From the NCBI GenBank assembly GCA_964535585.1, contig CAZHTR010000002.1:77169-141168 (forward strand): 64,000 nucleotides of DNA. Direction: 5' to 3'. Positions 1,178 to 25,394 of the stretch are shown here, one piece after another. Numbering within the stretch: position 1 is the stretch's first letter; every line of letters starts with the position of its first letter. This stretch comes from an uncultured bacterium (GTDB lineage: Bacteria; Fidelibacterota; Fidelibacteria; Fidelibacterales; Fidelibacteraceae). Made by a program: the position numbers and the translations under genes. Under the pieces are notes generated by a model. The model was not told where the DNA came from and did no database searches. It was given only the letters and a program-made list of their open reading frames with translations.

Positions 1178-1274
1178 TCTTTCTGACGAATATTTCCTAA
1201 ATATCTTTATTTTAGACCCATAGTTAATTATATTCCCCTTGAGTATAGCCAAAAACTTAAGAAAGGATGTTAAG

Positions 1275-2819: not shown

Positions 2820-2833
2820 GCGTATTTAATATG

Positions 2834-2863
2834 AAAAACCCGTCCTCTGAGACGGGTTTTTTT
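2834..2863 (+). terminator. Rho-independent terminator after the GT2 gene
   Basis: Stem ACCCGTC (2838-2844) pairs with GACGGGT (2851-2857) around a 6-nt loop, followed by a T-run at 2857-2863. Confidence 0.7.
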
Positions 2864-2998
2864 ATATCCGGTGCCCGATGATCGGGAGAAATAATTAGGT
2901 GTTGGATTATCCCCTCATTGCATTTTGAGGGAAATCATTGTAACTTAACTGAGCGTTGAATAAAAGGAATACGTATAAAAGCAAAGAACGGAGAAATC

Positions 2999-4192: not shown

Positions 4193-4198
4193 TTTCGC

Positions 4199-5095: not shown

Positions 5096-5686
5096 ATGAA
5101 AAGTATCGCTGTTACCGGCGGGCTGGGATCCGGCAAATCCGCCGCCCTTGGCATCTTTTACCAACTGGGCGCCAATACTCTCAGTGCGGACGATATTGCA
5201 AAACATTTATTGCAGGTCAATCCCGATCTGATCAGGAGTGTCAAAGAAACTTTTGGGGAAGCCTGCTATCTTGACGGTGAACTGCAGACGCATATATTGG
5301 CGGCACGCGCTTTCGCCACCCCGGAAGAACAAAGGACCCTCAATGCGCTGGTCCACCCGCTGTTAAGAACATATCTGCACAAATACATCTCCGCGACCAA
5401 AGCCGTCCCGGGTATTTTAATGGTTGAAGCAGCGATCCTTCTGGAAGCGGGTTTTGAGGATCTGTTCGACAAGACCCTTCTGATTACAGCCGATAAAGAT
5501 ATCCGTATTCAACGGGCTGTCCGCGACGGGCATTTGCCGGAGGAGGACATTCTCCGGCGCATATCGCTTCAGATGCCGGAAGAAGAAAAGCGCGCACGCG
5601 CGGATCATGTGATCGAGAATAACGGCAGCCGGGAAGATCTTTTTGAGACATGTTCCGCCTTCTGGGAAATGATCCACAAAGAATAA
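5096..5686 (+). CDS. coaE: Dephospho-CoA kinase
   Basis: N-terminal P-loop IAVTGGLGSGKSAA, a length of 196 aa, and a start directly abutting the upstream stop. Confidence 0.85.
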   Translation: MKSIAVTGGLGSGKSAALGIFYQLGANTLSADDIAKHLLQVNPDLIRSVKETFGEACYLDGELQTHILAARAFATPEEQRTLNALVHPLLRTYLHKYISATKAVPGILMVEAAILLEAGFEDLFDKTLLITADKDIRIQRAVRDGHLPEEDILRRISLQMPEEEKRARADHVIENNGSREDLFETCSAFWEMIHKE

Positions 5687-5714
5687 TAAACACTCATATT
5701 CGACAGAATAGTGT

Positions 5715-7433: not shown

Positions 7434-7434
7434 T

Positions 7435-9246: not shown

Positions 9247-9374
9247 GAGTATGCCCGTTTATCGAAAGATAAGTTAACATATCCCCGGAAAGGATAAAAC
9301 AATTTTATCGCAGAAGCCTGTGCCTCATGCTTCAAACAAATTTCATTGTACGCCGGAATATCGTATATTCGTGC

Positions 9375-10256
9375 ATGTACAAAAGCATTACCTGTAAGAC
9401 GGCACTGAACCCCCTGAACAGTTCCTATCTGCCCTATCGATGGGATCTGAACATTTACCGCGGCTGCGCCCATCGCTGCCGATATTGCTATGCGCTGTAT
9501 TCCCACGAATATCTGGGAGCGGGTGATTTTTTCGGCGAAATATTCATTAAAGAAAATATTGCTGAAATGCTGGAGAAAAAATTATACTCCCGCAACTGGA
9601 AACATGAAACGGTCAACCTTGGGGGCGTCACGGACAGTTACCAGCCCATTGAAGCGGATAGAAAGCTTATGCCGGATATTTTACGGCTTCTGATCAAATA
9701 CCGGACACCCGCCAGTATTTCAACAAAGTCCGTTCTTATTTTGCGCGATCTGCCGCTGTATGAGGAACTGGATAAGGTTGCGGGTGTCGATATCGCTTTC
9801 AGCATCACATGCCATGATGAAAGCATCCGTAAAAAGATCGAGCCTGCATCCGCATCATCAGCCGCGCGCTTTGAGGCGTTGAGGGAAATAAACCGGGCCG
9901 GTATCCGCAGCGGGATCTTGTTCATGCCCGTCCTGCCGTTTATAACGGACAGTGAACAGAATGTCCGGGCAATATACCGGAATGCGCAGGAAAGCGGCGC
10001 AGAGTTCGTTATCCCGGGGCTACTGAACCTGCGCGGAGCGACCCGCGGTCACTTCCTGAATTTTATCAGAAACACCTTTCCTGACCTGTATCCGCGATAT
10101 CAGAAGCACTACGGTTCGCGTGCCGAAAGGACCCCGTACCGAAACGCGTTCTATCACATGCTGGCGGAAATAAAAAACGCATATCCCCTCCGGCGGAAAA
10201 AACATGTACGCATTTCCGGGCAGAAACAACTGGAGCTGTTCGGGGCCGGGTATTAA
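9375..10256 (+). CDS. Radical SAM protein (SplB/COG1533-like)
   Basis: CxxxCxxC cluster NIYRGCAHRCRYCYA. I chose the ATG at 9375 (MYKSITCKTALNPL). The ORF track starts at 9327, which remains possible. Confidence 0.75.
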   Translation: MYKSITCKTALNPLNSSYLPYRWDLNIYRGCAHRCRYCYALYSHEYLGAGDFFGEIFIKENIAEMLEKKLYSRNWKHETVNLGGVTDSYQPIEADRKLMPDILRLLIKYRTPASISTKSVLILRDLPLYEELDKVAGVDIAFSITCHDESIRKKIEPASASSAARFEALREINRAGIRSGILFMPVLPFITDSEQNVRAIYRNAQESGAEFVIPGLLNLRGATRGHFLNFIRNTFPDLYPRYQKHYGSRAERTPYRNAFYHMLAEIKNAYPLRRKKHVRISGQKQLELFGAGY

Positions 10257-10327
10257 GTTAAAAAATGTTTTGACATATAGTACTTTTTCTTATATTCGTT
10301 GGACATAAACAAATCATGGAGGGAAAC

Positions 10328-11623
10328 ATGAAAAAACGCATTTTGTTCTGTCTGTTCAGTGTGCTGATGTTACTGTCGGTACTGAGCGCGAACGATTTTG
10401 TCAAGACCGGTATCAGTGTCGGCCCGCTGCCGTCTGTCGCCTATAACACCGACACCGGTTTTCAGTACGGGCTACTGGCAAATATCTTTTTGTATGGTGA
10501 TGGTAAGATCTATCCGGACTACTATCATAATTTTTATGTCGAGTGGAATCAAACAACAAAAGGAGCAGGCCTGACACAGCTTACCTACGACTCCAAATAC
10601 CTGATCCCCGGCATTCGCATGACGGCCGATCTCAGTTATGTCGTTAAGCAGGCCTGGGGTTTCTACGGATTCAACGGAGCGGAGTCCCAATACAACCCGG
10701 AATGGGTGGACAAAACAAGCGACGACTACAGAAATTCGCTCTATTATGCCATGAAACGCAATCAGTTGCGCTTTACGGTGAATTTTCAGGGCAACATTAC
10801 CGATCAAAGCCTGCGCTGGCTGGGCGGTTTGGGTGTGATGAATTTTGATGTCGGCTCCGCCTCAACCACACGCGCCTGGGATACAAGCTTTGTGGACCAG
10901 AGCACCCTCTACGACGAATTTGTAGACTGGGGTGCCATCGATGCGGCAGAAGCCGACGGCGGTTTGGTCAGCTACGTCAAGGCCGGTGTTGTTTATGATA
11001 CGCGCGACAATGAAGCCTGTCCCATGACCGGTATGTGGGAAGAACTGATAATGACCTATGCCCCCGGATTCATCGGAGAAGGCGGCGGCTGGCTGCAGCT
11101 GTCTGCCATTCACCGTCAATATTTTACGCTGGTACCCGATAAATTATCACTGACCTACCGTTTGGCATATCAGGGCATCATCGCCGGCAAGCAGCCTTTC
11201 TATCTGCAGGGCAATTTGCCGGATTCAAGGAATAATCGCGACGGTCTGGGCGGCAGCAAGAACGTGCGCGGCATCATGGGTTCCCGGCTTGTCGGAGACG
11301 GCTATCTATACGGTAACCTCGAGGCGCGCTGGAAGATCGTCCGCTTTCAGTGGATCGGTCAGAGTTGGTACTTTGGCGTCAACCCCTTCCTGGATGCGGG
11401 TATGGTTGTGCAGCCCTATGATTATGATAAATCCGGTATCGAAGCCCTTGCGACAACAGCAGATTATCTGACAGGCAATAAAGAAACACTGCACCTGGCC
11501 TACGGCATGGGTATCAAACTGGCCATGAACGAGAACATGATCATTTCGGTCGATTACGGATTTGCCGGCAGCCCGAACGACGGCGGTACCGGACTGTATA
11601 TCGCCCTGGGATATTTGTATTAA
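10328..11623 (+). CDS. Omp85/BamA-TamA-family outer-membrane beta-barrel protein
   Basis: Signal peptide MKKRILFCLFSVLMLLSVLSA sits behind GGAGGG. It has VVYDTRDNEACPMTG (a surface-antigen motif) and an aromatic C-terminus GYLY. An alternative ATG lies at 10316. Confidence 0.65.
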   Translation: MKKRILFCLFSVLMLLSVLSANDFVKTGISVGPLPSVAYNTDTGFQYGLLANIFLYGDGKIYPDYYHNFYVEWNQTTKGAGLTQLTYDSKYLIPGIRMTADLSYVVKQAWGFYGFNGAESQYNPEWVDKTSDDYRNSLYYAMKRNQLRFTVNFQGNITDQSLRWLGGLGVMNFDVGSASTTRAWDTSFVDQSTLYDEFVDWGAIDAAEADGGLVSYVKAGVVYDTRDNEACPMTGMWEELIMTYAPGFIGEGGGWLQLSAIHRQYFTLVPDKLSLTYRLAYQGIIAGKQPFYLQGNLPDSRNNRDGLGGSKNVRGIMGSRLVGDGYLYGNLEARWKIVRFQWIGQSWYFGVNPFLDAGMVVQPYDYDKSGIEALATTADYLTGNKETLHLAYGMGIKLAMNENMIISVDYGFAGSPNDGGTGLYIALGYLY

Positions 11624-11643
11624 AAAGCGGATAGTATAAGAAA

Positions 11644-12009
11644 ATGGCAAAATATATCATGATAGCGATGGGCGGTGCCAGCGGCGCCGTCCTTCGCTTT
11701 TTGGTTTCGGGCGTATTTTATGATCCGGCGGACAACGCTTTCCCCTGGGGAACCCTGATCGTCAACGGACTCGGGTCCCTGCTGCTCGGTGTTTTTCTGG
11801 GCTTCAGCCCGGAACAGGACCGGGCGTACTTTTTTCTGGTCGTGGGACTGCTCGGTGCTTTCACGACATTTTCAACCTTCAGTTATGAAACGATCCACCT
11901 TCTCAGGATGGCTGCCGTCAATACGGCGTTGATCAATATCGCCGCGAATGTAGTGGTCAGCTTAAGCGCCGTACTCGGAGGGTATTACTTCTCCGGCCTG
12001 CTTCGCTGA
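11644..12009 (+). CDS. crcB: Fluoride ion channel CrcB/FluC
   Basis: The 121-aa protein has 4 TM segments and the motifs GGASGAVLRF and GAFTTFSTFSYE. Confidence 0.85.
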   Translation: MAKYIMIAMGGASGAVLRFLVSGVFYDPADNAFPWGTLIVNGLGSLLLGVFLGFSPEQDRAYFFLVVGLLGAFTTFSTFSYETIHLLRMAAVNTALINIAANVVVSLSAVLGGYYFSGLLR

Positions 12010-12094
12010 ACAAAAATTCCTATTCCTGTTGCATCCCTTTAAAATATGTCATAATTTCAAAAGGTTATTTATTAAGGAACCGAGAAATTCAAGG

Positions 12095-12128
12095 GCCACC
12101 CCGAGACCGCTTCGAGGTGGCGCGTTTT
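12095..12128 (+). terminator. Candidate terminator after crcB
   Basis: GCCACC (12095-12100) pairs with GGTGGC (12116-12121), extended by a CGA/TCG pair, then GCGTTTT. The stem is imperfect. Confidence 0.4.
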
Positions 12129-12158
12129 ACAATAACCCGTTATTTAGGGAGAGGAACC

Positions 12159-13277
12159 ATGGCAAAATACCGCATAGGCTGGATGCCCGGAGACGGTGTG
12201 GGCAACGAAGTGATGGAAGCCGCGAAGATCGTACTGGACAAACTGCAGTTGGATGCAGAATTTATCCATGGCGATATTGGCTGGGAATTCTGGAAAAGCG
12301 AAGGGGATGCCCTGCCGCAGCGCACGATCGATATGCTGCAGACCGTGGATTGCGCGCTGTTCGGTGCGATCACGTCCAAACCGAAAGAAGAAGCCGAAAA
12401 AGAACTCGCGCCGGAAATGCAGGGCAAAGGAAACGTATATTTCAGTCCCATCGTCCGGATGCGGCAATTATTCGACCTGCATACCAATATGCGTCCCTGC
12501 AAAGCCTATAAAGGCAATCCTCTCAATTATAAAGATGATATCGACATCACGATCTTTCGCGAGAACACCGAAGGCATGTACGGCGGTGTGGAATTTTTCC
12601 CTTTGCCGCAGGAAGTCTATGATGCGCTGGATAAGAATCACCCCAAAATGAAAAAATTCAAAGCGGCCGGACTAGAGAACATCGCCTTGTCTACACGCAT
12701 CATGACCAAACAAGGCTGCGAACGTATCGTGACCAATGCATTCGAATACGCGAAGGAAAAAGGCAAGAAAGCCGTCACGGTCTGCGACAAACCCAACGTT
12801 CTGCGGGAAACGGGCGGACTGATGATCCGTACCGCGCGCGAAGTGGCAAAGAAATATCCCGAAATTGAATTATGGGAAACGAACATTGATGCACAGTGCA
12901 TGTGGTTGGTGAAAGACCCCGGCAATTACGAAGTGATCGTTGCCGAGAACATGTTCGGCGATATTTTGAGCGACCTGGCGGCGCAGCTGGTCGGCGGACT
13001 CGGGTTCGCATGCTCCGCGAACATTGGTACCAAGCTGGCCGTATTCGAACCGACCCACGGTTCCGCGCCCAAGTATTACGGCCTGTACAAAGTCAACCCC
13101 ATCGCCATGATCCTGACCGCAAAGATGATGCTGGACTGGCTGGGTGAGGCGGACATGGCCGAACGGCTTGAAAATGCCGTGGCCGAAGTGATCGCGGAAG
13201 GGAAGGTCCGCACCTATGATATGGGCGGCAGCAATACGTCCCTGGAAGTTGCGGAAGCCATCGCGGCGAAATTATGA
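12159..13277 (+). CDS. Isocitrate/isopropylmalate dehydrogenase-family protein
   Basis: Family motifs IGWMPGDGVGNEV, IFRENTEGMYGG and ENMFGDILSDLAAQLVGGLG. The ATG at 12159 sits behind GGGAGAGGA; the ORF track's 12117 start is less likely. Confidence 0.85.
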   Translation: MAKYRIGWMPGDGVGNEVMEAAKIVLDKLQLDAEFIHGDIGWEFWKSEGDALPQRTIDMLQTVDCALFGAITSKPKEEAEKELAPEMQGKGNVYFSPIVRMRQLFDLHTNMRPCKAYKGNPLNYKDDIDITIFRENTEGMYGGVEFFPLPQEVYDALDKNHPKMKKFKAAGLENIALSTRIMTKQGCERIVTNAFEYAKEKGKKAVTVCDKPNVLRETGGLMIRTAREVAKKYPEIELWETNIDAQCMWLVKDPGNYEVIVAENMFGDILSDLAAQLVGGLGFACSANIGTKLAVFEPTHGSAPKYYGLYKVNPIAMILTAKMMLDWLGEADMAERLENAVAEVIAEGKVRTYDMGGSNTSLEVAEAIAAKL

Positions 13278-13316
13278 TCGCCCCAAGTATGTTTTAAAAA
13301 AATATATCTATTGTGT

Positions 13317-13384
13317 GGAACAGGCATGGGTCTTTGTCCCGAAAATCCGGGACTGCGCCGGACAAGTGCCTGTTCCGTATTTTC
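13317..13384 (+). terminator. Compound hairpin terminator after the dehydrogenase gene
   Basis: The outer stem GGAACAGGCA (13317-13326) pairs with TGCCTGTTCC (13367-13376). It encloses an inner hairpin GTCCCG/CGGGAC (13336-13353), followed by GTATTTTC. Confidence 0.55.
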
Positions 13385-13485
13385 ATAAGCACTTTTATTT
13401 TCAGAGAATTCTTAGAGCACTACGCTGCAAGAACAATGATCGACCGCACAGAAAGCGGGAGTATTATTTTCATTCCTTCCAATTA

Positions 13486-13514
13486 TTGACAAATATACCC
13501 CCTGGATTTAATAA
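13486..13514 (+). promoter_or_regulatory. Sigma70-like promoter candidate for the DUF2089 operon
   Basis: TTGACA (13486-13491), a 17-nt spacer, then TAATAA (13509-13514), in an AT-rich 330-bp intergenic region. Confidence 0.3.
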
Positions 13515-13610
13515 TATTTATAATAAGGCGTGATATTATTAAAATAATTAATAATAAACCTTGCATTGCTTAATTTAATGAATTAATATACGCCGTAAGG
13601 AGAAAATAAT

Positions 13611-13994
13611 ATGATACACGAATGGCAGGTTTTGACAACAATGACGGAAGGGAAACCCCTACGGGTGCTCAAGGTGCTGGTTCCCGAAACGAGTATTCAG
13701 ATCGAAGGGGAATTCGTGCTACCCGCACTGGCGCAATTATCGGTGGAAGATCAGTTGTTCGCCGCGGTGTTCCTGAAGACCCACGGGTCCATCAAGCAAA
13801 TGGAAAAAGTGTTCGGCATCAGTTATCCGACCGTGAAGAACAGATTGAACCGCATTGCCGGGAAGCTGGATCTGGTGCACGTTGATGTGGAGATCGAAGA
13901 AACGGAAACGGACAAGAGTGATCGCCTGAACATTCTGGACAAACTGGAAAGCGGCGAGATCAGCGTTGAAGACGCGTTAAAGGGTCTGGAGTAA
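13611..13994 (+). CDS. DUF2089-family putative DNA-binding protein
   Basis: Segment LSVEDQLFAAVFLKTHGSIKQMEKVFGISYPTVKNRLNRIAGKL (HTH-like) is followed by a SHOCT-like tail ILDKLESGEISVEDALKGLE. A strong SD (AAGGAG) precedes the start. Confidence 0.65.
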   Translation: MIHEWQVLTTMTEGKPLRVLKVLVPETSIQIEGEFVLPALAQLSVEDQLFAAVFLKTHGSIKQMEKVFGISYPTVKNRLNRIAGKLDLVHVDVEIEETETDKSDRLNILDKLESGEISVEDALKGLE

Positions 13995-13997
13995 AAC

Positions 13998-14282
13998 ATG
14001 GGCATCAGGATCATTTCAAAGGACAAAAACGGAAAAACCTTCAGGCTGTGGCTGCCCGGGATCGTGATCGGGTTCTTTCTGCTGCTGGCATTCATGCTGC
14101 TGATCGTTCCTGTTTTTCTTGTTCTGATCGGACTGTTGATCTGGAACCTGATACCGGGACAGGAAGAACGATCCCGCGCTTACACACGGCTCATTTTGAG
14201 TGTTCCAAAGATATTTTGGGCAATGCGTGGATTGACTGTTGACATTGAATCGGAAGATACGATCATTAAAATAAATTTTTAG
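13998..14282 (+). CDS. Small membrane protein (operon partner of DUF2089)
   Basis: The 94-aa protein has one long hydrophobic stretch VIGFFLLLAFMLLIVPVFLVLIGLLIW and lies 3 nt after the upstream stop. Confidence 0.5.
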   Translation: MGIRIISKDKNGKTFRLWLPGIVIGFFLLLAFMLLIVPVFLVLIGLLIWNLIPGQEERSRAYTRLILSVPKIFWAMRGLTVDIESEDTIIKINF

Positions 14283-14292
14283 GAGAAATACC

Positions 14293-14727
14293 ATGAACGA
14301 AGAAAAAATGAAAATACTGAACATGATCTCGGAAGGAAAGATCACGGCGGAAGAGGGTGCCCGGCTGATGGAAGCGCTGGATAAGAAAGAAGAAGCGAAG
14401 ACGGAACATTCCCCCGCGTCCGTTGCCGAAAAAAAGAACGGAGCCGGTCAGTATCTGTACGTGGACGTAACGCCCAAGACAGACAAGAACAGCGAAAAGG
14501 TCCATGTAAAAGTTCCCATGGCGCTGCTTCGGGCCGGTGTGAACATTGTTTCCCTGCTGCCCAAAGATATCCAGAAGACCGTTGACGGCGCCCTGGATGA
14601 AAAAGGCCTTGGATTTGATCTTTCATCGCTCAAACCGGAGAACATCGAACAGTTGATCGAAGCCCTGGGGGAAATGGAGGTCAATGTCGATGCCGAAGAT
14701 TACACCGTGCGGGTATTTTGTGCCTGA
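14293..14727 (+). CDS. SHOCT-like-domain protein
   Basis: The N-terminus is EKMKILNMISEGKITAEEGARLMEAL. An SD (AGGAGA) is present. This is the third gene of the DUF2089 operon. Confidence 0.55.
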   Translation: MNEEKMKILNMISEGKITAEEGARLMEALDKKEEAKTEHSPASVAEKKNGAGQYLYVDVTPKTDKNSEKVHVKVPMALLRAGVNIVSLLPKDIQKTVDGALDEKGLGFDLSSLKPENIEQLIEALGEMEVNVDAEDYTVRVFCA

Positions 14728-14752
14728 TCTTTGCGGTGTTTAGCGGGATAAT

Positions 14753-14781
14753 AAAAAAAGCCAGGACATCTCCGGCTTTTT
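14753..14781. terminator. Bidirectional terminator between convergent genes
   Basis: AAAAAAAGCCaGGA-catc-TCCGGCTTTTT has an A-run on one side and a T-run on the other. It lies between a + gene ending at 14727 and a - gene ending at 14806. Confidence 0.55.
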
Positions 14782-14805
14782 CTATTATGACCATTGTTTC
14801 CTTTA

Positions 14806-15693
14806 TTAGGCCGGGGTATTGCTCCCGAAAAGATCGAGCTGCGGATCCACGGGTTCGTAAAATTTCATCTGGGTTGCCAGTCGCAATTCCCGGCAGACCT
14901 TGTAATAGCTGTTGTGTAGCGCTTCGGCGTTCAGGCTTTCGCACTGGTAGGTATTCCCGAACAGTTCGATATACTTTTCTTTAACCCCGGGGAAATGCTG
15001 ATCCAGTTGATCGTAGTACCATTCCCGCTGTCCCCGGCGCAGGGTCATACCCGGCCAGGCCAGCGCGTATTTGGCGCCGGCATCATGCGCGCGGCGCAGC
15101 AGTCCGGCAATTATTTCCGGGGAATCGGTGATCCAGGGCAGGACGGGGGAAATGACGACCCCGGTATAGATGCCTTCTCTACTCAGCGTGTTCATCGCTT
15201 CAAAACGTCTGGAAGAAAGCGGTGCGTAGGGTTCGATGATAGAGGACAGATCGTCATCGGGGGTTGTGATCGTGAAGGATACCGCCGCATAGATCTTTGA
15301 TATCTCCTTCAGAAGATCGATGTCCCGCAATACAAGATGGCTTTTTGTGATCACGTGAATGGGATAACGAAAACGTACGATCTGCTCCAGCGCCCTGCGG
15401 GTCATGCCCAACTCCGCTTCCAGGGGCATGTAGGGGTCGTTCATGCTGCCTGTTCCGATGGTCAGTTTCTTTCTCTTGGCGGCAAGTTCGTTAACCAGCA
15501 GTTCGATCGCGTTCTCTTTGACCAGAATATCGGCAAAATTCTCGATCTGGTAACAGCTGCTGCGGGAATCGCAGTAAATGCACTGATGCTGACAGCCGCG
15601 GTAGATATTCATATTGTAGGAGATACCGAAGGGATCATATCCGCTGCTGCGCAAAGGGGAAAGAATTGTTTTTGCCTGAATGTTTTTGATCAT
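14806..15693 (-). CDS. Radical SAM protein (SplB/COG1533-like), paralog of 9375..10256
   Basis: It carries MNIYRGCQHQCIYCDS and has the same overall layout as the other copy. Confidence 0.8.
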   Translation of the reverse strand: MIKNIQAKTILSPLRSSGYDPFGISYNMNIYRGCQHQCIYCDSRSSCYQIENFADILVKENAIELLVNELAAKRKKLTIGTGSMNDPYMPLEAELGMTRRALEQIVRFRYPIHVITKSHLVLRDIDLLKEISKIYAAVSFTITTPDDDLSSIIEPYAPLSSRRFEAMNTLSREGIYTGVVISPVLPWITDSPEIIAGLLRRAHDAGAKYALAWPGMTLRRGQREWYYDQLDQHFPGVKEKYIELFGNTYQCESLNAEALHNSYYKVCRELRLATQMKFYEPVDPQLDLFGSNTPA

Positions 15694-15719
15694 AGAAACC
15701 GCGGATCGTGTAGATTAAA

Positions 15720-15824
15720 GAGCACGGAGCACGGAGCACTGGGCACTGAGAAAATTAATGAGATCTCAGCGCCAACTCTCTCAGCGCTCATTTTCTCAGC
15801 GCCCACCCTCTCAGCGCTCAGCGC
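15720..15824. repeat. Tandem-repeat block: GAGCAC(G/T) heptamers, then four 15-bp units containing CTCAGCGC
   Basis: CTCAGCGC starts at 15765, 15780, 15795 and 15810, an exact 15-bp period. The heptamers GAGCACG GAGCACG GAGCACT GGGCACTGAG occupy 15720-15750. Confidence 0.85.
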
Positions 15825-15835
15825 TTTCTTCTAAG

Positions 15836-16864
15836 TTACCACTTCCCTTCTTTCAACACCGTCTCGATCATGGCCAGATAATTCTCGGGTTTTACGTATT
15901 CCGGTATCGAATTGGAGGAGCCCGCGCACCAGCCGCCCTTGTCTTTGGCGATATGAATAAAATTACGCGTCATTTCGCGGATATGCTCCGGTTCGGCGCG
16001 GCAGAGTTGGTCCACATCGATGCCGCCGCAGAGGCAGAGTTTGTCACCCACGCGCTCCTTGAGTTCCGTCATATCCATGGAAATGGGCTCCACGGGATGC
16101 AGGGCCGTGATGCCGATATCGTTGATCAGGTCGTCCATCACATCATAGAGTACACCGTCGGAATGAAAAATAAAGGGAATATTGCGTTTTTTTGCGAGCG
16201 CACCGATGCGCTTCATATAGGGAAAAAGATTTTCGCGGTAGAAGTCCGGACTGACCATCAGTCCCGAGGAATAGGCCAGGTCGTCGCTGTACCACAGCAC
16301 TTTGACAAAATCCATGCTTGCCATGGTCTCGAACATACTGACCACCAGTTCGCCAATCTTGGCGAACATCGCCGTGATCAGGTCCGGATCCTCGTACATC
16401 TTCATGGAAAAATTCTCGAAGCCCAGCATTTCCCAGACCGTGGTATAGATATCGCCGTACTGACCGATGATACCCATATCGTCCGGGATCAGCTTACCGG
16501 CCTCTTCCAGTCGCGAATATTCCAGATCGCTACTTGTTGCCCAGGGGTATTGTTCAAAACTTTCCCAATCCTGCACCACGCCGTCATGTTCGGAGGACCA
16601 ACTGCGGTCCACGGCCACATTGGCGTTCTTGGCGATGGAACGGTTGATCTCGATATGGATGCCCGGCTGGACCTTGATATAATCGTAACCCAGACCGCGC
16701 ATGAAGGCGATCTCGTCCTTCACGCTTGTGGCCGGACGTCCGAAGATCTTTTCCCGCATCTCGGGATGGATCCCGAGTTCGATCAGGGGTATATAATCAT
16801 TAGTTTTATTGAACAAGGTTTTCTGAAAATGTTCAAAATCGGGTTTGCGTAAATGAGAGAACAT
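15836..16864 (-). CDS. Uroporphyrinogen-decarboxylase-family methyltransferase (MtaA/CmuA-like)
   Basis: The 342-aa protein has IPFIFHSDGVLYDVMDDLINDIGITALHPVEP and LCLCGGIDVDQL, typical of the URO-D/MtaA fold. It lies next to a corrinoid protein. Confidence 0.75.
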   Translation of the reverse strand: MFSHLRKPDFEHFQKTLFNKTNDYIPLIELGIHPEMREKIFGRPATSVKDEIAFMRGLGYDYIKVQPGIHIEINRSIAKNANVAVDRSWSSEHDGVVQDWESFEQYPWATSSDLEYSRLEEAGKLIPDDMGIIGQYGDIYTTVWEMLGFENFSMKMYEDPDLITAMFAKIGELVVSMFETMASMDFVKVLWYSDDLAYSSGLMVSPDFYRENLFPYMKRIGALAKKRNIPFIFHSDGVLYDVMDDLINDIGITALHPVEPISMDMTELKERVGDKLCLCGGIDVDQLCRAEPEHIREMTRNFIHIAKDKGGWCAGSSNSIPEYVKPENYLAMIETVLKEGKW

Positions 16865-16873
16865 AAGCCCCCC

Positions 16874-17548
16874 TTATGCGGCAATGCCCAGGAGGCGCTT
16901 GGCTTCCCGGACCGCCTGGTTGGCGTTCTTGGCGTATCCCTCGGCGCCGATCTCTTCGGCAAAACCCGGCGTGACCGGCGCGCCGCCGATAAATATTTTA
17001 TTGTCCAGTCCGTTCGCACGCAGCAGGTCGATCACGCCCTTCATGTTCTTCATGGTCACGGTCAGCAGGGCGGACATGCCGATCAGGGCATTCGGGTTCT
17101 TTTGCGCCGCATACAGGAATTTCTGCGGCATCACATTGATACCCAGATCCTCGATCTCGAATCCCGCGCCCTCCAGCATCATGCAGACCAGGTTCTTGCC
17201 GATATCATGCAGATCGCCCTGCACGGTCCCGATAATGACCTTGCCCAGGATCAGGTCATGCCCTTCCAACAGCAAGGGCTTGACCAATTCGAGTCCGGAT
17301 TTCATCGCCTTGGCGGAAAAGAGCATTTCCGGAACGAAGATCTCGTTGCGCTCATAACGCTGACCCACGATACTCATCGCCGGAATAAGTCCCTGGGTAA
17401 GAATATCCTCGACCGCCATTCCCTCATCAATGGCCTTTTGCGTCAGCTCCCGCACGCCTTCTTTTCCTTCCATCTCTTTGGGAAATTTGGACGTGGCGTC
17501 AATGTGACCCTGTACCACACATGTTTTAATAGATTCCAATAGTGACAT
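16874..17548 (-). CDS. Cobalamin-binding corrinoid protein (methyltransferase cognate)
   Basis: B12-binding DxHxxG motif GDLHDIGKNLV and a later GGAPVT motif. An N-terminal helical cap domain is present. Confidence 0.85.
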   Translation of the reverse strand: MSLLESIKTCVVQGHIDATSKFPKEMEGKEGVRELTQKAIDEGMAVEDILTQGLIPAMSIVGQRYERNEIFVPEMLFSAKAMKSGLELVKPLLLEGHDLILGKVIIGTVQGDLHDIGKNLVCMMLEGAGFEIEDLGINVMPQKFLYAAQKNPNALIGMSALLTVTMKNMKGVIDLLRANGLDNKIFIGGAPVTPGFAEEIGAEGYAKNANQAVREAKRLLGIAA

Positions 17549-17700
17549 AAAAAACTCCCGCTCATTATTTTAGGTATGAAAATATATTGCATGTACGGCG
17601 GATAAACAATGAAAAATCCCGTTCCGGCCGCCGGCGAAAAAAAGGAATGTAAAAATGCCGGAGAATGCCTAATTTACGGGAAAGAAAAAACGGAGCGACC

Positions 17701-19200
17701 ATGAAAAAACTCAAAGAGATCCTTTCGGATATTTACAAGATCGGCGCAGCGGCGGGACTGCTGCAGTGGGACCAGGAAACCTACATGCCCGAAGGCGGCG
17801 GAGCCTTTCGCGCGGATGTTCTGGCGTATCTAAACCTTGCCGCGCACCGGCTGGCAACGGGAAGCGAACTGCGGGACGCACTGGCGCGCCACATCGATCC
17901 GGAAAGCGGGGAATGTATCAACATCACACTCAACGATACTGAAAAGCGTATGCTTACCCTGGTTTGGAAAGAACTGAAAAAGAAACTCGTGCTGCCGGAC
18001 AGCTTTGTCGAAGAAATGTCCAAACATCTTTCCGTCTCCCAGCAGAAATGGGCCGGCGCGCGCAAAGAGAACAATTTTGCCGCCTTTGCGCCCTACCTGG
18101 AGAAGACCCTCGAACTGAAGAAACGCGAGGCCGAATACTACGGATACGAAGAACAAGCTTACGACGCCCTGCTGGACGGTTTTGAACCCGGCATGACCAC
18201 CGCACGGGTCGCCGCCCTGTTCGGCGAACTGAAACCGCGCCTGATCGCTCTGACGGAACGCATCGGGAAAGCACAGCAGATCGACGATACCTTACTGAAA
18301 CAGAGCTTCGACAAGGATGAACAGTGGGCCTTCGGCATGAAGATCGCCAAAGATATCGGACTGGATATGACGCGTGCCCGCCAGGATGTTTCCGCGCATC
18401 CCTTTACCATCGGTATCCATCCCGACGATGTGCGCATCACCACCCGGCTCAATGAAAAGGCGCTGCTCTCGGGACTGTTCTCCACCATCCATGAAGCGGG
18501 GCACGCCATGTACGAACAGGGACTGCCCAAAGCACATTTCGGCACCCCGCTGGGACAGGCGGCTTCTTTCGGCATTCACGAAAGTCAGTCACGCCTCTGG
18601 GAGAACATGATCGGCCGCAGCCGCGACTTCTGGGAATACGCCCTGCCCGTGCTGAAGGGTCATTTCCCCCAGCTGCAGGACGTGGATCTCGCGGACTGGT
18701 ACCGCATGATCAATACCGTCAAGCCCTCCCTGATCCGTGTCGAAGCGGACGAGGTGACCTATTCCCTGCACATCATGCTGCGCTTCGATATCGAAAGCAG
18801 GATGATGAACGGCGAGCTGAAGGTCGCGGACCTGCCGGAGATATGGAATGCCAAGATAAAGGACTATTTCGGGATCGTCCCGAAGAACGACGCAGAGGGC
18901 GTACTGCAGGACGTGCACTGGTCTTTCGGCGGGATCGGCTATTTCCCCTCCTACGCCATGGGCAACCTCTACGGCGCCCAGATCATGAGTACGGCCGAAA
19001 AGGACATTCCCGCATTTTGGGACAAGGTCCGCGCGGGCGACTTTACAGCACTGAAAAACTGGCTGAACGAAAAGGTCCACGCCCGGGGCCATCTTTACGA
19101 CCCCGAAGCATTGATCGAAGTGATCAGCGGCGCCCCGCTCAGCGCGGAACCGTTTATGGATTATCTGGAGAAGAAGTATGGGGATATCTATCGCTTATAG
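17701..19200 (+). CDS. M32 (Taq-type) carboxypeptidase
   Basis: HExxH site IHEAGHAMYEQG plus HESQSRLWEN, DVHWS and GYFPSY blocks. ATG at 17701 (MKKLKEIL...). Confidence 0.9.
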   Translation: MKKLKEILSDIYKIGAAAGLLQWDQETYMPEGGGAFRADVLAYLNLAAHRLATGSELRDALARHIDPESGECINITLNDTEKRMLTLVWKELKKKLVLPDSFVEEMSKHLSVSQQKWAGARKENNFAAFAPYLEKTLELKKREAEYYGYEEQAYDALLDGFEPGMTTARVAALFGELKPRLIALTERIGKAQQIDDTLLKQSFDKDEQWAFGMKIAKDIGLDMTRARQDVSAHPFTIGIHPDDVRITTRLNEKALLSGLFSTIHEAGHAMYEQGLPKAHFGTPLGQAASFGIHESQSRLWENMIGRSRDFWEYALPVLKGHFPQLQDVDLADWYRMINTVKPSLIRVEADEVTYSLHIMLRFDIESRMMNGELKVADLPEIWNAKIKDYFGIVPKNDAEGVLQDVHWSFGGIGYFPSYAMGNLYGAQIMSTAEKDIPAFWDKVRAGDFTALKNWLNEKVHARGHLYDPEALIEVISGAPLSAEPFMDYLEKKYGDIYRL

Positions 19201-19207
19201 AGGGTGA

Positions 19208-19282
19208 GCGATGGGAAGATGGGCACTGAGAAGATGAGCACTGGGAGGGGGAGCACTGAGAGGGGGAGCACTGAGACGCGGA
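19208..19282. repeat. Five 15-bp tandem units containing GCACTGAG, same family as 15765..15824 in inverted orientation
   Basis: GCACTG(A/G)G starts at 19223, 19238, 19253 and 19268, an exact 15-bp period, with a degenerate unit at 19208. The array begins 8 nt after the carboxypeptidase stop. Confidence 0.85.
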
Positions 19283-19297
19283 GAGATCAGGATAAAG

Positions 19298-19327
19298 GTC
19301 CCGAAAAATCCCGGGACAATTTTTATT
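19298..19327 (+). terminator. Weak terminator-like hairpin
   Basis: GTCCCG (19298-19303) pairs with CGGGAC (19312-19317), then AATTTTTATT. The hairpin sequence is nearly identical to the inner hairpin at 13336-13353. Confidence 0.4.
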
Positions 19328-19411: not shown

Positions 19412-20731
19412 TTATTCCATTACATCCACAATTTCATTATTCTTATATAATTTTGGCAGAAATTTAGACTTAATTCTAAACTGGCTTCTCCTCTTAATCG
19501 ATGGATTTGTTGAAATATTTTCAAGTTTAATACCAGGGTCATAATAGATGTTTCCTTGTCCCATTTGAGAAAGAAAGAATTGAAAGTCAGTCCCAACTCC
19601 AAGTATTACCCGATTACCATATTTATACTTCCTGTTTCCGGCTGTTATTGATTGAGAGGGGACATAGCAGGCATTATTGTGTTTTCTGTTCCAGTGTAAC
19701 AGCATGGAAGAAAAGCTCCAGGAAGCTGTTTCGTTTTCATTCTGATCTATTAAAGCAATTTTTCCATTCGAATTTCTTATTTTTCCGGTTTCAATATCGA
19801 AACCAATAATTCTCATTTCCAATTGAGTTGTAGGATGAATTTCTCCTACTTTATGTATGCCACCAAAATTTAATCTGTCCGGACGCCCCATTTTATCAGG
19901 ATACCCATAAGTTCTAATAAAATAATCTGCACCCCGGGTTTTGTAAATTCCATCAGTTGGTTCGGGTGTCATCAATGTAATCACAGAAGAATTCAATCTT
20001 TCAAAATTTGTAACGCCAAATTGTTTAATTTCCCATCCCATAAAATCGGGTTCAGAATAACCATTGGGTGTTACTCCTAATTCAGCCTCTAAGGTATAAC
20101 CTCCGCAATTCGAAGACCTGCAAGGTAAAATATTTCCTTCAGAATCAAGTCTTTTTGAATCAATCCAATTCAGTTGATGAATTCGCGATAATTCATTTAA
20201 TAAAATTACTCTGCTGTTTTCAGATTTAGGTAAGTCAATAATCGAAAAAACCCCATGTTCTCCCAAATTTCTTTCTGCATTAAATTCATTAGCAATTATA
20301 GATTCCGGGTGTGAAACATATCCTAAAATTCGGCCTTGCCTGTCAACCGATAAAAAAAGAACTCTGTCAGCCAATCTTTGAGTCATTAACTCTGATGGCC
20401 CCCCCCTTGTCCCTTTTAAAAAACCTGAGAATCTTACTTCCGGGTATTTGGGATATAAAATTAACTGTGAATGAGGGGCAACTATGAGATTCCCATCATT
20501 ATCAATCCAAGAGAAGTTTACTTTTGCTTTAAATCTTTCTCTTTCCCAATCCCCTGCTTCTTCAGTCTCAATACCGGAAATCGGCAGAACATTTAAAATA
20601 TCAAAGCTTCCGGCTAAATATACCTGATTCTTTGAATTATCATTGGGTGAGAGTTTCTTTACATAGACTGATTTACAACCATTTTCAATCAGTAATTTTT
20701 TAAGATTAGTTAGATTCATTGAAGTCTTCAA
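19412..20731 (-). CDS. Type II restriction endonuclease: MvaI/BcnI-like catalytic domain with an N-terminal EcoRII-N-like extension
   Basis: The C-terminal half has PD-x4-E-x-K ([12 protein letters not shown]), then [13 protein letters not shown] and RKYKYGN blocks in the order I remember for R.MvaI. The N-terminus has [11 protein letters not shown]. Its start overlaps the dcm stop. Confidence 0.65.
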
Positions 20732-21890
20732 AAACTTTTATTACTTGTTTTGCGACAGCATGTATTAACGGTGAAACAACTGAATTTCCAAATTGACGAT
20801 ATGCCTGATTATCTGAAACAGGAATAATAAATTCATCAGGGAAACCCTGGAGTCTTGCACATTCCCTTGGAGTTAAACGCCTTGGATTGATCCCATTTTG
20901 AGGAATTAGTATTTCAGAACCATCCTTGTAATATCTTGCACTAATTGTTCGACTTATTCCATTTAAATCAGTTAAACCGAAACCAAACCCGTTTCCTTTT
21001 GCTTTATGTTTGGCAGCATAGTCTTGTAAATATTTCCAGAGTTTGTCTGAAAGCGTATATTTTGGATCAGGTTTTTCTTCCAAAATGTCATTTAATACCA
21101 TCTTTTGTTCGGGGAGTTTTGGGAAAACGAAAGATTCCTTTCCGTGAAATAGTTTTTTATCAAATCCAACAATAATAATGCGTTCCCTGTGCTGAGGTAC
21201 AAAATGTTTACCATCTAAAATGCGGTAATGAACCGAATAACCCAATTCATCCAATGTGTTATAAATAATTTTAAAAGTTCTGCCTTTGTCATGTGCAACC
21301 AGGTTCTTAACATTTTCGAGCATGAAAGCTTTGGGCCGTTTTTCTTTTACAATTCTGGCAATATCAAAAAACAGAGTGCCCTGAGTCTCATCTAAAAACC
21401 CATGTTTTTTACCTAAACTAATTTTTTTTGAAACCCCTGCAATTGAAAATGGCTGGCACGGGAACCCGGCTAATAAAATATCGTGACTTGGAATACTTTT
21501 CTCGTTAATTACAGTAATATCTCCAAATGGCACTTCCCCAAAATTTGCTTCATAGGTTACTTTGGCGAACTTGTCATATTCTGAAGAAAAAACACATTTA
21601 CCCCCGGCTTTTTGGTAGGCTAGTCTTATTCCGCCAATTCCCGCAAAAAGATCAATAAACGTGAATTTTGGATTCTTCGGAGTCGGGAAGGGAATATCCC
21701 ATTTAAAATCTAATTTCTCCTGTTGACCCATATTGTATTTGGCTAAATATGCAATCGCCGGTTCTTCAAAATATTGAGAAGCGCCGGTTCCTAAATTATG
21801 AAAATAGTGAGTCACAAAGGCTTGTTCATTTCCAGCATCTTTTAATGGCTCAATATTAATTATTTCCTTTAATTCAGAATATTTTAACAT
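20706..21890 (-). CDS. dcm: DNA cytosine-5 methyltransferase, Dcm/M.EcoRII-like
   Basis: [43 protein letters not shown] is very close to the E. coli Dcm motif I region. It also has [20 protein letters not shown] and QFGNSV. Confidence 0.9.
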
Positions 21891-22306
21891 AATTTCCTAT
21901 CTTTAATCACTTGTTCTACTTTATAAACACAAAGATCAGGATTATATTTAATTTCTTCGCCCCAAAATCGTATTACCTGCCAACCATTTTTCATCAAAGT
22001 TTCGTTTACGATCTTATCCCGTTCAATATTCCCCTCAATCTTTTTAATCCAGAACTCATTATTTGTCTTTATTCGGTGTTTTTTAATTTCCCAATCTTTT
22101 CCGTGAAAATACTCGCTATCACAGAAAATAGCAATTTTATATTTTTTAAAAGTGAAATCCGGCTTACCAAAAACATTCTTATTGTTTTTTCTGTATCTTA
22201 ATCCGTTCGACCATAAGGCTTTTCCAAGCAATTTTTCAATTTTAGTACCCTTGCTTTTTATGGCTCTCATATTTTTTCGTCTCTGTTCTTTTGTCAACAC
22301 ATCCAT
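21884..22306 (-). CDS. vsr: Very-short-patch repair endonuclease
   Basis: The 140-aa protein has [19 protein letters not shown]...[23 protein letters not shown]. It overlaps the dcm start by 7 nt. Confidence 0.9.
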
Positions 22307-22660: not shown

Positions 22661-24304
22661 TCATTCCAATAGTTTTTTTATTCGCGCTTTTATATTTTCG
22701 TATGTTGTATTTAGGCTTTGTTTGGCAATAGAGGTAAGCAATGCGGTATGTGCCATTGCATCTCGGATAGGTTTGTATGTCTTCGCATCTCGTATAATTG
22801 CTGCTTCCCTGTTTCTATCACTCGGTCTGTCTGCCGTAATAGCTAATTCATTCATAGAAAGATACAGCAAGTCCTCGTTGTTTTGTCTGATTTCAAAACT
22901 CACATTACCAATATTTCTTGCTTCGTTTTCTCTTCTTTTATAATCAGCCAACTCATTAGTAAAATGTGAGTAGTCCTTATTCTTATGCTTAATAAATTTT
23001 CGTAGTAAATTCTCTGAAACAAAGCACTCTGCGTAAGAGGATAAATTAAATTGAGCATCTTCGCCCAATGACAAAACCCAATCATCAACTAAACTTCGGT
23101 TTGCTGAACCACTTGGAGGGACAAATTCATCGGCAACTGCATTAAATAGTTCCTTTGACCTTCTTTCCTTCCTCGTTTTCCTTGTATTATCAGGGTCTCC
23201 ATCTTGATTAATCAAATCTCTCCAAATGTCCCAATCAGCCATGATGGAAGCAACTATAGACTTCAATTCATCTAAAAACAATTTGAATAATGGGTCGTCT
23301 GATAAAACTCCTTCTCGACTACTTGTGAATCTATCTTTGCCAGAATCAAGAGCATTGTAATGAATTTGTCCGTAGAGATAGCTTTCAACAACTCTAGTTG
23401 AAGGAACGTGTCTCAACAAATCCTTTTCTCGTAATCTGCCATTAACATATAGGTCAACAGAAACAGTTTCGGTTGTCTGTTTAATTTTTAACTGTGAAGG
23501 TTTTTCAACCGAGCCAATGAATCCAGTTATTGGCAACGATGATTCGATTTTTTTATACTGCTTGATATGTTCACTTGTTGAAGAAATTTTATCTTTGAGA
23601 TAAGGGTCCTCCATAGAATTTATCTGCCAAACAAACTGTGTACTTAATGAAAGGTCATTGAGTTCATTCAATGTAATTGGGTCATCATTTAAATAAATTT
23701 TAAAAGAGTTGTCAATCAGAGAAAATCTAAAAAAAAGTGCTATTAATTTTCGGATATATTCAATTCGATTTCGAATTCCATCATTAATATCTTCAAAGTA
23801 GATTATCGTTCCCTTCTGCATACCCTCCTTTTTTGAATCAAAGACAGACAGGTCAATGTTTTCAAGAGGATATTGTTGAGGTGTTAAATCGTCATTTATT
23901 GCATTATCAAGATTTCTGTTGTCAATGATGCCCCCAACAAAACCTGTATTTAGCGTTTTTGTAGCAATATGAATTCGCTTTGCACACGATAAAAGTGCAA
24001 GTTTTCCAATCCCCTTCCGTCCAATGAACGGACGATTATTCTCGGTCTTTTCAACTCCATCTTTACGCTTTGTATAGCCAATTTTCAGAAACTTATTTTG
24101 AAAATCATCTGTTGTCATCCCATCACCATCATCTTTAATAATGAGATAATTTTTATCTCTGTCAATATAAATACGAACCTCTTTAGCATCAGCATCCCAA
24201 GAGTTTGATATGGCTTCTCCAAGTACCGTGATGAAGTTTCTATAAAGATTTCTCCCCAGATGATTAAGGACACTCAAAGAAATATTAAATGTAAATTTAT
24301 CCAT
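22661..24304 (-). CDS. GHKL (MORC/Hsp90-like) ATPase with a C-terminal HEPN-like domain
   Basis: Bergerat-fold motifs EAISNSWDA (N box), IIKDDGDGM (G1) and GRKGIGKLALL (G2). The C-terminal tail has RDAMAH (Rx4H) encoded at 22748..22765. Confidence 0.75.
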   Translation of the reverse strand: MDKFTFNISLSVLNHLGRNLYRNFITVLGEAISNSWDADAKEVRIYIDRDKNYLIIKDDGDGMTTDDFQNKFLKIGYTKRKDGVEKTENNRPFIGRKGIGKLALLSCAKRIHIATKTLNTGFVGGIIDNRNLDNAINDDLTPQQYPLENIDLSVFDSKKEGMQKGTIIYFEDINDGIRNRIEYIRKLIALFFRFSLIDNSFKIYLNDDPITLNELNDLSLSTQFVWQINSMEDPYLKDKISSTSEHIKQYKKIESSLPITGFIGSVEKPSQLKIKQTTETVSVDLYVNGRLREKDLLRHVPSTRVVESYLYGQIHYNALDSGKDRFTSSREGVLSDDPLFKLFLDELKSIVASIMADWDIWRDLINQDGDPDNTRKTRKERRSKELFNAVADEFVPPSGSANRSLVDDWVLSLGEDAQFNLSSYAECFVSENLLRKFIKHKNKDYSHFTNELADYKRRENEARNIGNVSFEIRQNNEDLLYLSMNELAITADRPSDRNREAAIIRDAKTYKPIRDAMAHTALLTSIAKQSLNTTYENIKARIKKLLE

Positions 24305-25394
24305 TATTTTTTCCTTTTAAATGTTTTATTATGCTTTTCCCAATTGCTAAACCGAGATTTACAGGGACAGCATTACCTATATGGGTGCCAGTTTGCGTGA
24401 GCAAAACATCATTATTCTTATCAACAAACTTATACTTCGCTGGGAAACTCTGAAGAATCGAAGCTTCTCTGATCGTTAATGCCCTGTCTTGTTCCGGATG
24501 GCCAAAACGCCCAGTTCCATAGTTATAAAATTGTGTTGTTATGGTTGGTGCTGGTTCATCCCAAGACATTCTTCCATAAACCGCTTTGTAGGTTTTTCCT
24601 GTTTCTTTTTTATGACAATCTAACCAAAGGCTTTTATCCCAATCTTCCCAAGTTCCATTAGGAAGTGATGATTTTATTCTTTTAAGATTAATAGCTGTTA
24701 GTTTAGTTGTAAAATGAAGAACATCAGACTTACTTCTCTCTCCGTTCCCTAAGGGTTCTAAATGACCAATTGCTTCACGAACAGTTTTATAGTTGTTCTT
24801 TTTATGCGTAGGCGGTATGAGATCAATTATTCCAAATCTTGACGCTAGCAGCACAAGTCTTCTTCTTTTTTGGGGGATGCCATAATCAGGGCAATATACG
24901 TTTTTGTAATTGACCCGATATCCATTATTTTCTAGTTGAAATACAAAGTCTTTAAAAATTTGCTTGTTTGATAAATTGGGTACATTTTCCATCGAAATAA
25001 TATCTGGAGTTGTTTCTTTTATTAATCTACTGAATTCATTTAACAAATTCCATTTATCGCCTTGCTTACTTCCTTTAAGTTTGTTCGCGTGAGATGAAAA
25101 GGGTTGGCAAGGAGCACAGCCAACCAAGAGTTTTACCTCATCATCTTTCCAATATTCTATAATTTGTTGACCTGTTACTTCGGTAATGTTGGCACAAATA
25201 AATTTTGCATTATTATTTGTCTCATAAGCATATTTACAACTTGTATCTAAGTCTATCCCCGCCCTAATGGTAATGCCTGATTTTTTTAATCCGTGAGTTA
25301 ATCCGCCCACACCACAAAACAAGTCAACTCCTGAAACAGTTGGAATTGTTATTTTTTTATTCTGTTGTTTTTGTGTAGTTGGTTTTATTTTCAT
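24297..25394 (-). CDS. DNA cytosine-5 methyltransferase (second, unrelated specificity)
   Basis: Motifs VDLFCGVGG, GCAPCQPFS, ENVPNL, QKRRRL and GNAVP. Its 3' end overlaps the GHKL gene start by 8 nt. Confidence 0.9.
   Translation of the reverse strand: MKIKPTTQKQQNKKITIPTVSGVDLFCGVGGLTHGLKKSGITIRAGIDLDTSCKYAYETNNNAKFICANITEVTGQQIIEYWKDDEVKLLVGCAPCQPFSSHANKLKGSKQGDKWNLLNEFSRLIKETTPDIISMENVPNLSNKQIFKDFVFQLENNGYRVNYKNVYCPDYGIPQKRRRLVLLASRFGIIDLIPPTHKKNNYKTVREAIGHLEPLGNGERSKSDVLHFTTKLTAINLKRIKSSLPNGTWEDWDKSLWLDCHKKETGKTYKAVYGRMSWDEPAPTITTQFYNYGTGRFGHPEQDRALTIREASILQSFPAKYKFVDKNNDVLLTQTGTHIGNAVPVNLGLAIGKSIIKHLKGKNNG

Follow-up and report, generated by a model that had tools for sequence, protein, structure and literature searches.

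A vsr-dcm-nuclease operon of an uncultured Fidelibacteraceae bacterium encodes a divergent restriction endonuclease with the predicted domain architecture of UbaLAI

The DNA analysed here, called the window below, is a stretch of 64,000 nucleotides (nt) from an uncultured bacterium of the Fidelibacteraceae (GenBank assembly GCA_964535585.1, contig CAZHTR010000002.1, positions 77,169 to 141,168). Its minus strand carries an operon of three overlapping open reading frames (ORFs), in the order vsr, dcm and nuclease, coding for a Vsr mismatch endonuclease, a Dcm-type C5-cytosine methylase and a two-domain restriction endonuclease, in which a predicted B3-like DNA-binding pseudobarrel precedes a catalytic domain of the MvaI/BcnI family. 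As a whole, the operon is likely to be a Type II restriction-modification (R-M) system whose nuclease has the architecture of UbaLAI, acts on a site of the CCWGG type and is licensed by two copies of that site. EcoRII, MvaI, Dcm and Vsr all act on CCWGG or its deamination product. The original prediction, made from the DNA letters, had likewise proposed a CCWGG system and had described the nuclease as an EcoRII-like N-terminal domain joined to an MvaI-type cutter. The genes, domains and motifs on which the analysis bears are the following (window positions; residues counted in the 435-residue nuclease).

21884..22306, minus strand: vsr, very-short-patch-repair T:G mismatch endonuclease, 140 amino acids (aa), first gene of the operon (Pfam and NCBIfam)
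20706..21890, minus strand: Dcm-type C5-cytosine DNA methyltransferase, 394 aa (Pfam and NCBIfam)
19412..20719, minus strand: two-domain restriction endonuclease, 435 aa (from ATG 20719; the listed ORF reaches TTG 20731)
20204..20719, minus strand: N-terminal domain, residues 1-172, predicted B3-like DNA-binding pseudobarrel, putative second-site effector or tether (AlphaFold2 and Foldseek)
20618..20659, minus strand: N-arm motif K21-x-L-S-x-N26-D27-N-S-K-N31-Q32-x-Y34 (invariant or nearly so in 101 homologues)
20417..20467, minus strand: C-arm hairpin motif Q85-L-I-L-Y89-P-K-Y92-P-E94-V-R96-F-S-G-F-L101 (alignment and model)
19415..20203, minus strand: C-terminal domain, residues ~173-435, MvaI/BcnI-type PD-(D/E)XK nuclease (Pfam, profile and Foldseek)
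20024..20089, minus strand: catalytic motif E211 ... P-D225-x4-E230-x-K232 (alignment with MvaI)

The three ORFs were found exactly where they had been predicted, and every peptide quoted from their products is present in them. While the overlap of 7 nt between vsr and dcm was confirmed, the 26 nt given for dcm and the nuclease gene depend on a TTG start at 20731, from which the nuclease ORF (19412-20731) would comprise 439 aa. The ATG at 20719 is the more likely start, since the homologues, which number in the hundreds, are about 435 aa long and begin with MNL. A database protein that is 100% identical to the window nuclease (P0001) also has 435 aa. With this start the overlap is 14 nt, and as the ATG falls within the last dcm codons (…AATGAATCTAACTAA), translational coupling of dcm and the nuclease gene is suggested.

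The C-terminal half of the nuclease is a bona fide MvaI/BcnI-family nuclease with an intact active site, as had been proposed, and separate profile and fold searches agree on this. The Pfam model MvaI_BcnI (PF15515) is matched over its full profile (1-227 of 227) by residues 174-425 of the 435-aa protein, which are residues 178-429 of the 439-aa ORF (E-value 1.6e-46; 159.6 bits, cutoff 25). A profile built from 101 diverse homologues, 35-51% identical to the window nuclease (profile A1), retrieved MvaI (2OA9, 3.2e-11) and BcnI (2ODH, 5.3e-7) from the Protein Data Bank (PDB). A full-length AlphaFold2 model, obtained from an alignment of 81 sequences (mean predicted local distance difference test score, pLDDT, 92.3; predicted template modelling score, pTM, 0.88), gave MvaI (2OAA_B, 4.8e-13) and BcnI (2ODI_A, 1.0e-12) as its top Foldseek matches, with target-normalised template modelling (TM) scores of 0.76-0.77, followed by BfiI, the B3 domains of auxin response factors (ARF) and LlaJI.R1-N.

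At the residue level, the MvaI active site (E36, D50, E55 and K57) has its aligned counterparts in E211, D225, E230 and K232, all four of them invariant in the 101 homologues. T68, D207 and R230, by which MvaI reads the GG half-site, correspond to T248, D394 and R415, which are conserved. The MvaI strings that the original prediction had quoted (APDFHDIEIKT, TLFTKSPT, WSFDS and KYYKYNS) are genuine and were seen in the PDB alignment.

Concerning the N-terminal domain, sequence searches and structure searches gave different pictures. No Pfam model matched the ~172 N-terminal residues of the window nuclease at E ≤ 1, and a scan of 31 diverse family members gave no match to EcoRII-N (PF09217) or B3 (PF02362) at E ≤ 10. 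In the PDB, neither phmmer nor the family profiles A1 and A3 retrieved anything with this domain at E ≤ 10; UbaLAI-N (5O63) was thus missed by the single sequence and by both profiles. These null results show only a divergence beyond the reach of hidden Markov models. EcoRII-N itself, used as a query at E ≤ 10, returned only EcoRII and did not reach UbaLAI-N. When the N-domain family profile was compared by hhalign with authentic EcoRII-N, the probability was 25% and the alignment spanned 21 columns at the motif (V)Y(V)K(K)LS(P)ND; homology to EcoRII-N cannot be claimed from this short motif. The EcoRII string FVYIKRLSAND cited in the original prediction is nevertheless authentic: it occurs in the EcoRII of an IncN plasmid, confirmed as 1NA6.

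Modelled by itself with AlphaFold2 (pLDDT 89.9), the N domain had as its best PDB match chain B of 5O63, which is UbaLAI-N with a CCWGG duplex (E 8.3e-6, probability 1.00, TM 0.53/0.55). The next matches were BfiI-C, the B3 domains of ARF, TEM1 and VRN1, and LlaJI.R1-N, so that the credible matches are DNA-binding pseudobarrels throughout; EcoRII-N was absent among the 50 matches listed. On the strength of these models, the N domain is a predicted B3-like DNA-binding pseudobarrel of the EcoRII effector-domain fold class, with UbaLAI-N as its closest solved structure. The EcoRII-N-like half of the original prediction therefore stands as a fold class; as a sequence family it does not.

The most conserved residues of this domain fall in two motifs. 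The N-arm, with the sequence K21-x-L23-S-x-N26-D27-N28-S29-K30-N31-Q32-x-Y34, occupies the loop and the strand next after beta-1; it aligns with EcoRII K23-R-L-S-A-N28-D29, where H36-Q37 is a further parallel. Its N26...N31-Q32 spacing is that of N32...R37-H38 in UbaLAI (N to +5 and +6), in which R37 and H38 would correspond to N31 and Q32 here, N26 and the C-arm pattern Y89-x-K91-Y92-x-E94-x-R96 matching in spacing and being invariant. The C-arm occupies a beta-hairpin of the N-domain model (strands 85-89 and 94-98), and Y89, Y92, P93, E94, R96, S98 and G99 are invariant in the 101 homologues. The spacing of Y89-P-K91-Y92-P-E94-V-R96 equals that of the UbaLAI contacts Y84, R86, Y87, E89 and R91, and it also fits EcoRII R94-x-E96-x-R98. 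In UbaLAI, N32, Y84 and R91 read the central A:T pair (PMC5766183). The apparent conservation of these asparagine, tyrosine and arginine residues is the best argument that the N domain would bind CCWGG.

The original prediction had regarded this domain combination as uncharacterised, a claim which fails because UbaLAI, the same fusion of an EcoRII-N-like with an MvaI-like domain, was characterised biochemically and structurally in 2017. UbaLAI, described from a single environmental clone, consists of an EcoRII-N-like B3 domain (residues 1-164) followed by a catalytic domain (165-405) that resembles MvaI (Sasnauskas et al., NAR 2017, PMC5766183). It is a Type IIE enzyme and a monomer, cuts CC/WGG and requires two sites; its N domain binds one of them very tightly and tethers the catalytic domain, which carries just one active site and nicks both strands of the second site in turn (PMC5766183). 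Even for the catalytic domain of UbaLAI, HHpred was needed for an alignment with MvaI (PMC5766183). The window nuclease has the same domain order and similar domain sizes, with boundaries at ~1-172 and 173-435, the same predicted pairing of a B3-like pseudobarrel with an MvaI-like domain, and, judged by spacing, the same C-arm pattern Y-x-(R/K)-Y-x-E-x-R. It differs in its N-arm contacts (N31-Q32 for R37-H38) and in its sequence, the family profiles missing UbaLAI at E ≤ 10. A trait of the window family in this comparison is the C5 methylase of the Dcm type to which it is tied, often together with Vsr.

With MvaI and BcnI, which are monomeric, single-domain Type IIP enzymes (2OAA and 2ODI), the nuclease shares the fold of the catalytic lobe and of the recognition lobe (TM ~0.76), an identical E/D/E/K active site and the GG-reading residues, whereas both lack an N-terminal domain. 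MvaI also differs in its partner, an N4-cytosine methylase, and ignores 5-methylcytosine (m5C), while the partner in the window family is a C5 methylase. As for EcoRII, a homodimeric Type IIE enzyme cutting /CCWGG (1NA6 and 3HQF), the likeness lies in the N-terminal pseudobarrel effector domain, in the motif (V/I)Y(V/I)K(K/R)LSxND, in the E-x-R pair of the C-arm and in a Dcm-type methylase partner (49-52% identity). The catalytic domain of EcoRII is, however, a base-flipping dimer of the PspGI/Ecl18kI type and not MvaI-like, and its Pfam N-domain model fails on the window protein. The overlap of vsr and dcm recalls the E. coli locus, although the order is reversed there, dcm preceding vsr.

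The Dcm-like methylase and the Vsr of the original prediction were both recovered well above the model cutoffs. The Vsr protein matched Pfam PF03852 (4.8e-31) and NCBIfam TIGR00632 (150.3 bits, cutoff 97.85), and the methylase matched DNA_methylase (PF00145, 6.6e-100, 335 bits) and TIGR00675 (345 bits, cutoff 100.65). With E. coli K-12 Dcm the methylase shares 49% identity, but it does not belong to the E. coli Dcm subfamily model (PRK10458, 402.8 bits, below the cutoff of 710). Both insertions of Dcm and M.EcoRII are missing from it, a compact layout which it has in common with the Ecl18kI-type methylase of plasmid pKPN2, to which it is 57% identical. The plasmid system is a CCNGG system, because its nuclease is Ecl18kI (2FQZ, 3.6e-203). 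By sequence, the window methylase can be placed firmly in the Dcm/M.EcoRII/M.SsoII group, which methylates the inner cytosine of CC(N/W)GG.

The full-length nuclease has 5,919 homologue clusters at 90% identity (E ≤ 1e-3, among the candidates scored) and the N domain alone 502 clusters at 50% identity. Nearly all of the N-domain matches listed have ~415-470 aa, or are shorter and probably fragments. Relatives occur in at least 541 genomes in a scan with one genome per species. Among the matches listed they are overwhelmingly from Bacteroidota (Flavobacteriales, Cytophagales, Chitinophagales, Sphingobacteriales and Bacteroidales), and the closest named homologue, 82% identical, belongs to Bacteroidales bacterium UBA2295. 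Searching the literature for members from Bacteroidota that have been characterised, or for their m5C motifs, returned nothing specific. The N-terminal pseudobarrel (also in homologues P0121-P0270) is without a Pfam model, and because it escapes the EcoRII-N and B3 profiles, the public names of these proteins read only 'MvaI/BcnI family' or 'hypothetical'.

The gene neighbourhood was analysed in the best 80 loci of named genomes. A Dcm orthologue (62-84% identity) lies immediately upstream of the nuclease gene in 76 of them, normally overlapping its start. The remaining four comprise one locus with the order nuclease-vsr-dcm, one with a divergent methylase (43% identity) and two cut by a contig end; a Dcm-type methylase thus adjoins the nuclease in all 78 informative loci. 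A Vsr homologue is found within 5 kb in 26 of the 80 loci, about 15 of which have the tight vsr-dcm-nuclease order of the window. The methylase-nuclease pair is therefore a conserved module and Vsr a facultative accessory, the window operon being a typical full version. In four loci (L031, from a Saprospiraceae metagenome-assembled genome, L055, L077 and L079), the nuclease gene has vsr-dcm, or only vsr, downstream of it instead of upstream; with such rearrangements of the accessory genes in a few genomes, the gene order of the module is not rigid. A methylation-dependent nuclease (Type IV or IIM) was also considered and was rejected, the cognate methylase being invariably adjacent.

By analogy with UbaLAI, the system would work as follows. 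The methylase would modify CCWGG, or perhaps CCNGG, at the inner cytosine, and Vsr, from what is established for this enzyme, would repair the T:G mismatches that arise when the 5-methylcytosine so made is deaminated. On unmethylated DNA, the pseudobarrel of a presumably monomeric nuclease would first bind one copy of the site and license or tether the catalytic domain, which, with its single active site, would nick one strand of a second copy, swivel and nick the other. An efficient double-strand break would then need two unmethylated sites in cis, and such a requirement would therefore act as a safety catch against self-cleavage of the host. As a C5 methylase is its invariable partner, the nuclease would have to be m5C-sensitive somewhere. 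The MvaI loop that corresponds to K409-R410-R411 of the window nuclease lies next to the C5 positions of cytosines, so that this altered loop and the effector domain are the candidates for such sensitivity.

Several observations weigh against this picture. No sequence-level link of the N domain to UbaLAI-N or EcoRII-N could be established, the structural alignment with UbaLAI-N has only 15% identity at a TM of ~0.55, and the residue equivalences in the two arms come from motif spacing and secondary structure rather than from superposition. MvaI, whose partner is an N4 methylase, is not blocked by m5C, and the m5C sensitivity of the window nuclease is assumed solely from its own methylase partner. 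In the catalytic domain, R209, with which MvaI contacts the central T, aligns with G396, an invariant lysine (K398) standing two residues further on, and the MvaI loop H223-D224-H225 is replaced by K409-R410-R411. With 52-54% identity to each, the methylase stands equally close to CCWGG and to CCNGG enzymes, and the host part of the window shows no depletion of CCWGG (observed/expected 0.95, vs. 1.03 for CCSGG). These normal frequencies are uninformative on the site and fit a recent acquisition of the system.

The recognition site is where the alternatives come closest. The same architecture and mechanism might serve CCNGG, CCSGG or another CC-x-GG variant, which we consider unlikely, though deserving of attention. 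Over the gap-free columns of a four-way alignment, the CCNGG enzyme of the Ecl18kI type, with its shared compact layout, has marginally the highest identity to the window methylase (197/368, vs. 193/370 for Dcm and 201/385 for M.EcoRII), and in the target-recognition region, which is 46-51% identical, it again stands beside the CCWGG enzymes (47/93 vs. 42/92 and 46/92). The methylase that was taken to mark a CCWGG system does not, in other words, separate CCWGG from CCNGG, although a CCWGG system is still plausible. Within that region, one stretch of 21 residues does favour it, with 15-16 identities to Dcm and M.EcoRII and only 8 to the CCNGG enzyme. On the nuclease side, BcnI, a CCSGG enzyme, is matched almost as well as MvaI both by the family profile and in the fold search, and the central-base contact of MvaI is not conserved. 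But BcnI reads its central C:G pair via H77 and H219, which are replaced here by T251 and the invariant Q413, so that a BcnI-type CCSGG readout appears to be absent, while the W readout of MvaI does not seem to be simply retained; the central-base readout thus fits neither enzyme. Moreover, the N domain appears to retain the N...Y-x2-Y-x-E-x-R pattern that reads the central T:A pair in UbaLAI and EcoRII. On balance, CCWGG is the somewhat favoured site, with CCNGG and CCSGG as its alternatives.

Two further readings concern the pseudobarrel itself. The family might be an independent, convergent fusion of B3-like and MvaI-like domains, in which the pseudobarrel and not the catalytic domain confers m5C sensitivity; the effector would refuse Dcm-methylated sites and so keep inactive a catalytic domain that, like MvaI, may tolerate m5C. 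We regard this as quite unlikely. If it were true, a methyl-sensing effector would explain how an MvaI-type cutter came to have a C5 methylase as its partner in place of an N4 one. The pseudobarrel might also act at the catalytic domain's own site, as an extra recognition module or an autoinhibitory lid, in a one-site Type IIP enzyme. The pTM of the full-length model suggests a fixed arrangement of the domains and not a free tether, and in BfiI a pseudobarrel is the sole recognition module; against this, the catalytic domain has no need of an external reader, because it retains T248, D394 and R415, and UbaLAI-N, the closest structural relative, has been proven by experiment to be a second-site effector within the same domain arrangement. 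The N domain of EcoRII is both lid and effector, so that even an autoinhibitory role would be compatible with Type IIE behaviour. Such a one-site enzyme therefore seems very unlikely, and the UbaLAI-like, two-site system remains the reading we prefer.

The operon stands at one end of a probably horizontally acquired island of low guanine-cytosine content (GC ~35%, flanks ~50%), which extends roughly from 19.3 to 25.6 kb. The identical island was found on several metagenomic contigs in an unchanged chromosomal context. One further feature lies between the nuclease gene and a convergent gene for an M32 peptidase.

19298..19317, no strand assigned: GC-rich hairpin, possible bidirectional terminator (consensus match on both strands)

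Since terminator-consensus matches in this region are not above shuffled expectation, they are weak evidence that the hairpin is a terminator. The same island holds a second methylase-nuclease-like pair on the minus strand (22661-25394), in which a 365-aa C5 methyltransferase (24297-25394) and a 547-aa protein of the GHKL/HATPase_c_3 type (22661-24304) are encoded with an overlap of 8 nt. For the latter, the NCBIfam model 'BbrUII/HgiDII family restriction enzyme' gave 1e-87 with 295 bits, below the cutoff of 550; only its profile positions 1-363 of 659 are matched, which leaves the C-terminal ~180 aa of the protein uncovered. Past the M32 peptidase gene that flanks the island, there is a cluster of genes for a corrinoid protein, a URO-D-like methyltransferase and a radical S-adenosylmethionine protein (window 16874-17548 and neighbours; L001 11172-13914), which belongs to host metabolism and has no relation to the R-M operon.

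In the host sequence of the window (1-19300 and 25601-64000), GGWCC is under-represented, with 113 occurrences against 168 expected under a third-order Markov model (z ~-4.2), and ranks among the lowest pentamers. A restriction system of the AvaII type, at another place in the genome, may be behind this scarcity. The same sequence contains no CTAGG/CCTAG.

As a whole, the window nuclease is an uncharacterised and very divergent member of a large family whose architecture is already known from UbaLAI. No new kind of system is revealed and the practical value is modest, but the UbaLAI architecture, in this divergent form, turns out to be one of the commoner R-M nuclease families of the Bacteroidota, counting at least 541 species and more than 5,700 clusters at 90% identity. 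The finding is of use for database annotation, through a new domain model and the typing of such enzymes in REBASE, and for the transformation of these bacteria, where Dcm-type methylation of the incoming DNA might protect it. The family also offers a natural series for following how a nuclease of the MvaI type, blind to m5C in MvaI itself, became compatible with a C5 methylase.

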